DNA from: Promethearchaeota archaeon
GTDB lineage: Archaea > Asgardarchaeota > Lokiarchaeia > Sigyniarchaeales > SOKP01
Direction of reading: 5' to 3'
Assembly (NCBI GenBank): GCA_029838195.1
Contig: JALGVJ010000003.1
Span: 64,001-128,000 of the forward strand
Length of the DNA stretch: 64,000 nucleotides
Numbering within the stretch: the stretch's first letter is position 1; the number at the start of each line of letters is the position of its first letter. Below, piece after piece: positions 58,653-61,676 of this stretch. A program made the position numbers and the translations under genes. The notes under the pieces are model-generated. The model ran no database searches. It saw only the letters and a program-made list of their open reading frames with translations, and was not told where the DNA came from.

Positions 58653-61600
58653 TTATAAAGATTCCCTATAAATATCAATAATTTTATCCGTTCTAGCTCG
58701 CCTTAAAAGGACTTTCATCCCAATGAGCACAGAAAGCATAGAAAGTATATATACGATGATCACGTTCATGTAAGGAAAGACGATATCGGTAGGTGTATCA
58801 GATAATAAATTTAGATTGGAAGCTAATAACCATGCCGTGAGCCAACCCGTTATCAAGCCAATGATCGCACTACTGGTCATGATGATTAATGCTTCTAATA
58901 TGAATAACCGATTCACATCGCTTCCTCTTAGCCCTAATGTTCTAACGATTCCAATCTCTTTTTTCCTCTCAATTATTGAAGAATAGGAAGATGATAATAA
59001 CCCAAAAAGGCAAATTACAACAGTTGCATACAATACGATGGAAAAGATGGAGTCTAAGGTGGAAAATGTTTGTTCATTCATTCGAATTTGACGATCTAAA
59101 TTTATAACTCTAAAATCATAATAATACTTGTAAGTATCTTCAATAAATACTTCAATCTGACGTGAATTTTTAGCAGCGTTTTCATTAAGCTTGATGAAAA
59201 ACTTCTCAACATGAACATTTGCCGGAATATCCAATAATTTTAAATATAAATCTTGTGAAATTAACACGCCACCATTGCGTGCCGCATTGGAAGAACCAGA
59301 GAAGCGTCCGGAAAATCCTGGCATGGAAGATGCCATTCCTACAATAATGAAAGGATAATTTTCTGTTTCATCTCCTCGTTCTACAATCAAGCGTACTTTA
59401 TCGCCTAAATTTAAATTTAAACTTTGCCCAATTGCCTCTGATATGATGCAAGCATGCGTTTCTTGCTCAATGAAGAGTTGCTGGAATGCCTCATCTCGAT
59501 TTCCCCTAGTAAACTTAATGTATTGGGTATCAATCGCCGTAAGATATTCTTCGTCAATTCCATAAAGACTAATGCTCTGCGTGGTCAAACCGGCATAATC
59601 TCCAAACTCAACGCTAAATTCTTTTCCCACTTGAGAATAAATTTGGCTCAAATGGAACGGGGTTGCTGGCACGCTCGATACTATTTCTACCCCTTCAATT
59701 TGTAACAAGGTCGTTTTAAAATCCACAGTCATTATTCGACTTGGGTCTATGGAATAAGTTTCTTCCTCTGCTAAAGGATTAATTTCAGAATTTCCAAGAA
59801 ATTCTTTTTCTCCACTTTCCTGAAAGGGATCTTGCGTGCTAAAAAACCCAAATCCTCCTTGTCCCGAGCGCTGGGCAGTTTCCCATCCCGTTGTTTCAAT
59901 CACTAAATCAGACCCATACCGCAAGCGGACGTTAAGGGTAAATTGAGCGGATAAAGTCTGTAGGACTGTGGCTGTAAATATCACGAAGGAAAAGGACATG
60001 GCAAAAATGATCACCGTGCTTGTATTCCTTCGATGATACCGGAATACGAAAATTCTTATAACACTATGTAATTTCTTTGATATTGGTTGAAAAATTAATA
60101 ATACCAGTCTTAAAATTACCGGTACAAGCCCCATTCCTGCTAATGTCATTCCAATATTAAAGATGAGTAAAATTGTTAATAATGTTCCCGCTAATAAAGA
60201 AGCATCTCCCGTAATAATTAATCGAGGGATGATAAAATAAACAAACCCACCATTTCCGGCTAAAATGAGCCCTACTAAAATTAATTTATAATTAATCGTG
60301 GATTTTTTTTGTAAATGATATAATGTATCTTCATGACGATACGGATGAATGGATTCTATTAATTGAAGTCTTCTAACTTTCATGGCAGGGGCAATGCTCA
60401 CGGCTAATCCGACCCCAATTCCAAGGCAATAAGCAATTAAAACTGAAACAATGTTAAAAGCGAATTCGACTCCCGCATTTCCCAATCCAAATCCAGAGGA
60501 TAAAACATTTTCAGCAAAGGGTAATAAGAAGATGTCGGTAATGAAATATGCCTCAATCATTCCTAATATAGTCCCGATATTACACATGAGAAAACCTTGA
60601 ATAATTACAATGGCTAAATTATAGTTTTTATACGCCCCCAACACCCTGAAGATTCCAAATTCTCTTATTTTTTCTTCCACGGATGTATTTAAAATTCCGT
60701 TTATTAGTATACCGGAAATTAACATGCCAATAATAGACACGAATACAAAAATAATTGTAATTCCAACACTAAACATCTCAGAATATCCTAACATTCGCAA
60801 CTTCGGTAATTCTATATTATATTCCTCAATTCCTAATGCAAGTTGAATCTCCGAAGCAAATTCTTTTACTTTTATTTCCGATCCTTTAACGTCTCTCACA
60901 TCATAAAAATCAGACGCATGTTTGAACGTCATGATTAATTTACTGCAGCGATCTTTGAACACGTCATATCCGAATATCCGATAGAGCGTTTCGATGTTTA
61001 CCACAATGAGATTCTTACTTCGGTAATCGGAGGGCCATTTTAAGTTATAATCAAAAATGTAATCAATTATTAATCGCTTGGTCTTAGTAATTGTCTTATC
61101 TCCATGAATTATCTGCATTTCGATTTTGATGCCATCTCCTTTCTTGTACTTGATGATATCATTAAATTCATGATAAATCGCACAGTGATAGACGGGGAGA
61201 TTAATTGCTCCTAATGAATTTCCGGTATCTGGATCTAAGAACTCTCCAAATCCTAAGGAATTTTCTAGCGAAAAATCAATTCCTGAAATCGTCACGGATT
61301 GCGTGAATTCGGTAAGTTTCGTGCTTTCAAAACTTTCAGAGATATAAACAGTTCCCGTTGCCTCCATTCGTGGAATATAAGATTCTATCTCATCAGTAGT
61401 AGATTCGATTTTTTGAATGACTTCTTGAAATTTAAAATATGAAGATCTATCCTCAGGCTCTCCATTATAATGCCTTATGGAGACCACCATGTCTTGATCT
61501 CCCGCATCTGTCGCGAGATAATCAACGAAGGAAACGGTAATAGAATCTGAGAGAAATAGAATGATAGAAAGCAAGCTGACACTTATCATTACCCCTATTA

Positions 61601-61676
61601 TACCTATTGTTGATCTTACTTTTTGATTTCTTAGATCCTTAAAAGCGTAAATAAATGCCAGCTTGATATTAAACAT
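58653..61676 (-). CDS. large FtsX/MacB-family ABC permease (internally duplicated), paralog 1
   Basis: EEKIREFGIFRVLGA and ERKKEIGIVRTLGL motifs; same architecture as 46874-49861. Confidence 0.9.
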   Translation of the reverse strand: MFNIKLAFIYAFKDLRNQKVRSTIGIIGVMISVSLLSIILFLSDSITVSFVDYLATDAGDQDMVVSIRHYNGEPEDRSSYFKFQEVIQKIESTTDEIESYIPRMEATGTVYISESFESTKLTEFTQSVTISGIDFSLENSLGFGEFLDPDTGNSLGAINLPVYHCAIYHEFNDIIKYKKGDGIKIEMQIIHGDKTITKTKRLIIDYIFDYNLKWPSDYRSKNLIVVNIETLYRIFGYDVFKDRCSKLIMTFKHASDFYDVRDVKGSEIKVKEFASEIQLALGIEEYNIELPKLRMLGYSEMFSVGITIIFVFVSIIGMLISGILINGILNTSVEEKIREFGIFRVLGAYKNYNLAIVIIQGFLMCNIGTILGMIEAYFITDIFLLPFAENVLSSGFGLGNAGVEFAFNIVSVLIAYCLGIGVGLAVSIAPAMKVRRLQLIESIHPYRHEDTLYHLQKKSTINYKLILVGLILAGNGGFVYFIIPRLIITGDASLLAGTLLTILLIFNIGMTLAGMGLVPVILRLVLLIFQPISKKLHSVIRIFVFRYHRRNTSTVIIFAMSFSFVIFTATVLQTLSAQFTLNVRLRYGSDLVIETTGWETAQRSGQGGFGFFSTQDPFQESGEKEFLGNSEINPLAEEETYSIDPSRIMTVDFKTTLLQIEGVEIVSSVPATPFHLSQIYSQVGKEFSVEFGDYAGLTTQSISLYGIDEEYLTAIDTQYIKFTRGNRDEAFQQLFIEQETHACIISEAIGQSLNLNLGDKVRLIVERGDETENYPFIIVGMASSMPGFSGRFSGSSNAARNGGVLISQDLYLKLLDIPANVHVEKFFIKLNENAAKNSRQIEVFIEDTYKYYYDFRVINLDRQIRMNEQTFSTLDSIFSIVLYATVVICLFGLLSSSYSSIIERKKEIGIVRTLGLRGSDVNRLFILEALIIMTSSAIIGLITGWLTAWLLASNLNLLSDTPTDIVFPYMNVIIVYILSMLSVLIGMKVLLRRARTDKIIDIYRESL

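Follow-up and report, generated by a model that had tools for sequence, protein, structure and literature searches.

Among the ATP-binding cassette (ABC) transporters of the type VII class (MacB, LolCDE, FtsEX and YbbAP), FtsEX works with EnvC or PcsB and serves as a model for partner handling. The YbbAP system of Escherichia coli functions with the hydrolase TesA, and has been described as a type VII ABC transporter-hydrolase complex (PDB 9GE6/9GE7; PMC12646458). For a eukaryotic family of permeases, E-ABC3 (TC 3.A.1.207), homologs were reported in a Heimdall metagenome-assembled genome (MAG) and in MK-D1 (Russum et al. 2021; PMC7997004); in that report, the Entamoeba protein C4LT38 is paired with Heimdall OLS24198 (E 6e-12, 19.9% identity; table in PMC7997004), and the Heimdall pair OLS18414/OLS18415 is filed as 3.A.1.207.5. 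E-ABC3 proteins of the C4LT38 type carry the UniProt label 'ABC3 transporter permease C-terminal domain-containing protein'. In the library searched, no paper citing TC 3.A.1.207 was found besides PMC7997004, and nothing relevant was found in the literature on FtsX in Dictyostelium, Tetrahymena or Asgard archaea, or on DUF214. Here, two permeases (permease 1, P0001; permease 2, P0002) are described from a 64,000-nucleotide stretch of a Promethearchaeota archaeon (assembly GCA_029838195.1, contig JALGVJ010000003.1, positions 64,001 to 128,000; referred to as the window). The likeness between such Asgard permeases and the eukaryotic family is real and is already on record (TCDB 3.A.1.207; PMC7997004); the present analysis adds a rooted-tree placement, a check of the motifs and the operon context. 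Eukaryotic E-ABC3 probably forms one long-stemmed clade inside an Asgard-rich family, next to the clade that holds P0001 and P0002 (clade A) or at least within the group formed by clade A and a second Asgard clade, B1.

The two permeases had been called clear paralogs in a preliminary description of the window, and full-length BLASTP bears this out (29% identity, 53% positives, E 4e-115, end-to-end alignment). All three pairs of strings quoted there as shared were located in P0001/P0002: ILNTSVEEKIREFG/ILSTSSEERVREFG, HRRNTSTVIIFAMSFSFVIF/RRRNTSTTVMFAISFSFIFF and MPGF...GGVLISQDLY/IPGF...GGVMVSQETY. Pfam analysis identified two FtsX domains (PF02687) in each protein (E ~1e-27, over the gathering score), the second of which lies at residues 880-996 in P0001. 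A MacB_PCD domain was found at residues 555-835 of P0001 (E 1.6e-9); P0002 has no Pfam match to MacB_PCD, yet is colinear with P0001 in the alignment. Hydropathy analysis and an AlphaFold2 (AF2) model of P0001 (predicted local distance difference test score 78.5, predicted TM-score 0.69) give ~10 transmembrane (TM) helices per chain, arranged as two FtsX units in one polypeptide with extra linking helices. The order in P0001 is TM1, a ~240-aa outer domain, TM2-4, the linking helices, a further TM helix, a ~290-aa outer domain and three TM helices, and the outer domain of either unit is of mixed alpha/beta type in the AF2 model. Each of the two paralogs is an internally duplicated FtsX permease of the type VII class, a fused pseudo-dimer of two 4-helix FtsX units, with linking helices between them and one large outer domain per unit.

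Foldseek analysis of the P0001 model gave E. coli YbbAP (9ge7_A/9ge6_A) as the top matches over the full chain, followed by LolCDE, BceAB, MacB, YtrEF and HrtBA; the outer domains of MacB, LolC, LolE and YknZ were also matched. The structural alignment with YbbP 9ge7_A is full-length, with a TM-score of 0.57 by target and ~11% identity. Among PDB entries, sequence similarity by itself links P0001 to MacB, YtrF and LolC/F only. The permeases score below the NCBIfam equivalog cut-offs for MacB (58-61 bits against 966), lolCE (49-66 against 362), FtsX_Gpos (25 against 225) and ADOP (TIGR03434; 55-70 against 622). Orthology to E. coli YbbP or to ADOP was not found at the sequence level, and the ordinary ~830-aa bacterial duplicated permeases fall outside the family as an outgroup. 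As YbbAP is the top fold match and all NCBIfam cut-offs are widely missed, P0001 and P0002 are regarded as YbbP-like fused type VII permeases that are orthologs of no named system.

The Asgard system resembles YbbAP in having one chain with two FtsX units and linking helices, two outer domains and a separate LolD-like ATPase, and gene order suggests an extracytoplasmic hydrolase partner, as in YbbAP-TesA. However, YbbP has 804 aa, whereas the Asgard chains are ~200 aa longer with larger outer domains; two paralogous permeases are encoded per single ATPase gene; instead of a thioesterase/lipase, the putative partners are an anchored surface protein of giant size and an S8 protease; and the Asgard host has a single membrane, unlike the E. 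coli host of YbbAP. MacB, LolC/LolE, FtsX and BceB share with the Asgard permeases the FtsX fold, a MacB_PCD-type outer domain, a LolD/MacB/FtsE-like ATPase and a presumed mechanotransmission mechanism. In contrast to the fused Asgard chains, MacB, LolC/E and FtsX each consist of one 4-helix unit and form dimers, and BceB has 10 helices but one outer domain where the Asgard permeases have two. No MacA, TolC or LolA-type partner is present with the Asgard permeases.

An exhaustive search with P0001 gave 6083 matches, 98 of them at E < 1e-30, and the trees drew on the best 150 of the 6083. In the first tree, these 150 split into a eukaryotic clade of 1000-1344-aa proteins (clade X) and the rest. 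Clade X includes Discoba (Naegleria lovaniensis, N. gruberi, Euglena, Diplonema, Trypanosoma conorhini and T. rangeli), Amoebozoa (Entamoeba histolytica, Pelomyxa, Physarum and Thecamoeba), the blastoclad fungus Paraphysoderma, and sequences from MMETSP and EukProt transcriptomes. It is deep and diverse, with at least 37 clusters at 50% identity, and many of its genes lie on 0.1-1 Mb scaffolds; on one metagenomic contig, the gene adjoins Skp1. The preliminary description had pointed to a protist family of long duplicated FtsX proteins in amoebozoans, ciliates and metamonads. The four amoebozoan genera agree with this, but no ciliate or metamonad member was among the matches listed; nor was any member from animals, plants or yeast.

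The eukaryotic members are colinear with P0001 and P0002 over ~750-800 aa (21-24% identity, E 1e-22 to 1e-32 by BLASTP) and have the same hydropathy layout, and homology to E-ABC3 extends across the whole 10-helix permease for both P0001 and P0002. With an E-ABC3 profile, Asgard proteins score 200-305 bits (P0001 242, P0002 233), GC-rich prokaryotic relatives have a median of 139 bits, and ordinary ~830-aa bacterial duplicated permeases (e.g. of Micromonospora) reach at most 86 bits. E-ABC3 proteins share the ~10-helix duplicated layout and common motifs with the Asgard permeases, but their first outer domain is longer (~330 aa, with conserved cysteines), N-terminal extensions are frequent, they have motif variants of their own (IYSLLMINVExRTFE and AHRxRNRKT), and they have no operon and no known ATPase partner. 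We know of no function or partner for E-ABC3. One early-branching member of clade X, P0271, is encoded on a 5.3-kb contig on which a 199-aa open reading frame (ORF) without a Pfam match (L003:666-1265, + strand) ends 19 bp upstream; as this spacing is unusual for a eukaryote, the origin of the contig is questionable.

The eukaryotic consensus contains AHRxRNRKTxxMYALSLGFIIF and APxF/PGF, and the motifs given for protists in the preliminary description do therefore exist in eukaryotes. However, the RRRN...T..MF.S..F helix, the PGF motif and the E.R.RE.G..R..G loop are common to Asgard, eukaryotic and non-Asgard prokaryotic members; being present across the entire family, they provide no specific tie between Asgard archaea and eukaryotes.

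The family contains at least three clades of Asgard sequences (A, B1 and B3), together with some GC-rich prokaryotes. The named members of clade A are Promethearchaeota, and the orthologs of P0002 form a separate subclade within it. Clade B1 contains P0179, which is named Hodarchaeota (near-identical to G259:C1, L043), and P0161, which is 100% identical to a protein in a genome of the window's phylum; 17 sequences from genomes of the window's GTDB phylum fell into A, B1 and the basal clade B3, the last of which includes P0204 and P0216. The outgroup consisted of ordinary ~830-aa bacterial duplicated permeases and a 1400-aa distant paralog from the window's genome, and a group used in early tests, B2, consisted of GC-rich prokaryotes and two sequences later placed as Asgard.

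In a quick tree with posterior mean site frequencies (PMSF), the outgroup was followed by the paralog, by grades of prokaryotes, by B1, and by A and X as sisters, with Shimodaira-Hasegawa-like approximate likelihood ratio test (SH-aLRT) support of 92 for A+X and 93 for A+X+B1. A careful LG+C20 PMSF tree (57 rows x 901 columns; support given as bootstrap/SH-aLRT) recovered the same order, with 90/89 for X+A, 95/89 for X+A+B1 and B3 basal. The clade of Asgard and eukaryotic sequences for which the preliminary description had proposed to look was thus obtained in a maximum-likelihood phylogeny. Across 1000 bootstrap trees, X grouped with A in 90.3% and with B1 in 8.7%, and in 0% did it fall outside the ingroup or with the non-Asgard prokaryotes. 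Approximately unbiased (AU) tests with PMSF frequencies rejected a position of X outside the ingroup (delta lnL 42.8, p 1e-4) and with the non-Asgard group (delta lnL 23.2, p 0.016), and an AU test under LG+F+G4 with fast searches rejected X with group B2 (p 0.004); the outcome named beforehand as refuting the link, eukaryotes branching with non-Asgard prokaryotes, is rejected by these last two tests. Long-branch attraction is an unlikely cause of the placement of X, because it would pull X towards the outgroup and the tree nests X away from it.

The window belongs to contig 87 of a 4.5-Mb assembly (96.6% complete, 7.9% contamination), and relatives bear the names of Promethearchaeota and further Asgard groups. 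Of 68 genomes sampled from the GTDB family of the window, 52 encode an ortholog of permease 1 (49-57% identity), and close orthologs were found in none of the 233 genomes sampled from 29 other families of the same phylum. The names that submitters gave to the sources of proteins with 52-57% identity to permease 1 span five Asgard 'phyla' (Loki, Thor, Hermod, Hod and Odin). Conservation of permease 1 across all Asgard phyla, as these names would suggest, was considered and dropped, since among the 301 sampled genomes orthologs occur only in its own GTDB family. Either the names given to MAGs are unreliable or other lineages were missed by the 301-genome sample.

The two permeases belong to a five-gene operon with the order LolD-like ATPase, permease 1, anchored surface protein, S8 subtilase and permease 2 (Table 1). 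The ATPase gene (P0003) lies 49 bp upstream of permease 1, and the start of the subtilase gene (P0005) overlaps the stop of the gene upstream by 8 bp. P0003 matches Pfam ABC_tran (E 3.7e-36), and its top NCBIfam match is LolD, at 243 bits below the 308-bit cut-off, followed by DarD, MacB, FtsE, DevA and YbbA. Two other Asgard contigs, L007 and L008 (L008 being named Hermodarchaeota), carry these five genes in identical order and encode 391-392-aa ATPase orthologs in the same position, an orthologous surface protein in the same slot, a subtilase, and an FtsX protein of ~990 aa in the last slot. In L006, a complete Asgard genome, the cluster comprises only the ATPase, permease 1 and an unknown protein of 924 aa, and neither a subtilase nor a second permease is encoded close by. 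The same genome as the window holds three further duplicated FtsX permeases, of 1400, 799 and 633 aa.

Table 1. Features of the permease operon and the additional FtsX permeases of the same genome. Locations are positions in the window unless a locus and contig are given.
Feature	Location	Strand	Description
Permease 1, P0001	58653..61676	-	Intact ORF, 1007 aa; fused, internally duplicated FtsX (YbbP-like) type VII ABC permease
P0001 N-terminal FtsX unit	60342..61676	-	Residues 1-445; TM1, first outer domain, TM2-4; bears the ILNTSVEEKIREFG motif
P0001 linking helices between FtsX units	60072..60299	-	Residues ~460-535; from hydropathy; AF2 helices 463-487, 492-516, 518-528
P0001 C-terminal FtsX unit	58656..60071	-	Residues 536-1007; HRRNTST... 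helix, MacB_PCD-type outer domain with PGF motif, TM8-10
Permease 2, P0002	46874..49861	-	ORF, 995 aa; paralog of P0001
ABC ATPase, P0003	61726..62901	-	391 aa; LolD/MacB/FtsE-type core ~80-300, Lys/Glu-rich N-terminal extension, ~80-aa C-terminal extension
Surface protein, P0004	54783..58637	-	1284 aa; N-terminal signal/anchor, Ig-like CARDB/DUF11/TRAP_beta-type domains, C-terminal TM helix
S8 subtilase, membrane-anchored, P0005	49925..54790	-	1621 aa; Peptidase_S8 (E 2.8e-34), Big_7 and Reelin subrepeat by Pfam; TM ~1461-1482
1400-aa FtsX permease	L027:2121-6323 (contig C76)	-	Colinear with the family, 23% identity over ~850 aa; branches just outside the family
799-aa FtsX permease	L028:4546-6945 (contig C76)	-	Only the FtsX domain in common with the family
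633-aa FtsX permease	L029:2549-4450 (contig C37)	+	Only the FtsX domain in common with the family

Several further observations were made on the neighbourhood. The surface protein P0004 has a Pfam match below cut-off to TRAP_beta, the eukaryotic translocon-associated protein beta (E 6e-4), and its orthologs at L007:13085-17782 and L008:7035-11003 match TRAP_beta at E <= 1e-5; these matches may merely reflect a general Ig/CARDB-fold likeness. Synteny extends past the operon, genes for RNase III, an RPB9-type zinc-ribbon protein, GDPD and a CoA-binding (succinyl-CoA-ligase-like) protein lying upstream of the ATPase gene in L006, L007 and L008. Two divergent clade-A permeases, P0141 and P0142 (MHA1730450.1 and MHA1730449.1), are encoded on one 23.9-kb contig of another Promethearchaeota MAG and may adjoin without intervening genes, as their accession numbers are consecutive. 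Near the GC-rich relatives P0213 and P0310 (contigs L048 and L049), ATPase and permease are apart or flanked by 390-680-aa proteins without a Pfam match, and a giant P_proprotein/VWA/Big protein is also encoded near these permeases. These neighbourhoods hint that secreted partners may be encoded alongside the permease throughout the family.

By comparison with the solved YbbAP and BceAB complexes, each permease would pair with two molecules of the LolD-like ATPase, for which there is one gene upstream, and ATP binding and hydrolysis would be transmitted through long stalk helices to the outer domains. Such mechanotransmission implies work performed outside or within the membrane, not the movement of a solute through a pore. 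Judged by gene order, in which the two permeases bracket the surface protein and the subtilase, their job would most likely be to extract, present, release or switch these partners.

The grouping of the eukaryotic proteins with Asgard archaea might instead be an artefact of biased sampling, shared low GC and the long eukaryotic stem, with E-ABC3 derived from a bacterial lineage, either unsampled or within the GC-rich group; we consider this somewhat unlikely, and several results count in its favour and against an Asgard placement. The prokaryotic set was centred on an Asgard query, being its best 150 of 6083 matches, so that bacterial families more distant from P0001 but nearer to the eukaryotes could be missing, and in pairwise similarity P0001 matches GC-rich prokaryotes at E 1e-63 to 1e-70 and eukaryotes less closely, at E 1e-22 to 1e-32. 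The 'non-Asgard' GC-rich group (eight sequences) has a name for one cluster only, Verrucomicrobiae, and one GC-rich contig carries HMG-CoA reductase and may be archaeal. No Asgard proteins were listed when the E-ABC3 profile was searched through a word filter, despite their 200-305 bits locally, and such a search cannot show that bacterial relatives are absent. A bacterial source is nonetheless opposed by the Asgard proteins being the top-scoring ones with this profile, and by an insensitive scan of 185,579 prokaryotic species genomes for eukaryote-specific patterns, which gave just two single-FtsX bacterial proteins (24-30% identity). Many rows fail the composition test in the careful PMSF data set, and because the outgroup and the non-Asgard group are both GC-rich, compositional attraction may help to part them from Asgard archaea and eukaryotes; the basal position of the low-GC Asgard clade B3, beside the GC-rich outgroup, is contrary to a simple attraction of this kind. 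SR4 recoding lowers support for the grouping of eukaryotes with Asgard A+B1 to only 58/69 (79/75 against the non-Asgard group) and makes the long-branched Hodarchaeota protein P0179 the sister of the eukaryotes (100/100). This pairing may be due to long-branch attraction; Hodarchaeales are the proposed closest relatives of eukaryotes. Some tests leave the alternatives unseparated: under LG+F+G4 with fast searches, the AU test does not reject X outside the ingroup (p 0.18); in an unrooted four-group test no arrangement of the full-length proteins is rejected under LG+F+G4, and under C10 the worst, eukaryotes with B2, has p-AU 0.087; and rooting the N-terminal half against the C-terminal half (210 columns) places eukaryotes outside an Asgard+prokaryote clade (SH-aLRT 89/93; AU for Asgard-eukaryote sisters p 0.41). 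The half-against-half rooting was set aside because it has too few columns, and the support values of IQ-TREE -fast searches, which reached local optima, were not relied on because a constrained tree beat the 'free' tree. PMSF-based AU tests may overstate confidence; against the artefact stand the rejections of a eukaryotic and non-Asgard grouping by AU under both PMSF and LG+F+G4, and its absence from the 1000 bootstrap trees. Support for eukaryotes branching inside Asgard diversity is moderate and model-dependent. The preliminary description's wording, that these may be the 'Asgard sisters' of the eukaryotic family, fits clade A under PMSF, but which sequences are sister to the eukaryotes varies between models.

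An Asgard-type permease is the most likely ancestor of the eukaryotic family, whether inherited vertically at eukaryogenesis or acquired by early transfer. Had a single protist lineage instead received the gene later by horizontal transfer, and had it then spread among eukaryotes, the family would have no bearing on eukaryogenesis. The patchy distribution described above (Discoba, Amoebozoa, one blastoclad fungus and transcriptomes) and the poorly resolved branching inside the eukaryotic clade would fit such a late transfer, but members occur in both Discoba and Amorphea, on both sides of most proposed eukaryotic roots, and a stem of ~1.1 changes per site leading to a deep, diverse clade fits an old origin, so that we regard a late arrival as unlikely. 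A different question is whether the Asgard proteins simply export peptides, lipids or drugs in the manner of ordinary MacB-type transporters, with a gene neighbourhood that has no mechanistic meaning, as the label 'ABC-type antimicrobial peptide transport system permease' on relatives and the reduced gene set of the complete genome L006 might suggest. This explanation appears improbable to us: L007 and L008 preserve the order of the genes, gaps are short and one stop overlaps the next start, distant family members also adjoin unknown, probably secreted proteins, no curated equivalog cut-off for MacB, LolC/E or ADOP is reached, and YbbAP, the nearest system of solved structure, acts together with a hydrolase (PMC12646458).

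Links between Asgard archaea and eukaryotes mostly concern the cytoskeleton, trafficking and ubiquitin, and membrane machines are rare among them. E-ABC3 occurs widely among protists, Entamoeba, Naegleria and trypanosomatids being examples. If the family is of Asgard descent, the operon described here would provide a concrete hypothesis for the function of E-ABC3 and an indication of where to seek the missing eukaryotic ATPase, and eukaryogenesis studies would gain one more gene family. Tentatively, E-ABC3 may be a true Asgard inheritance: from its archaeal parent, the last common ancestor of eukaryotes would have retained a mechanotransmission machine of YbbP type, which in Asgard archaea would work with an anchored surface protein and a subtilase. 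Were this so, the Asgard operon would point to the handling of surface proteins as the role of E-ABC3 in eukaryotes, and E-ABC3 would be among the few eukaryotic signature proteins that are membrane machines.

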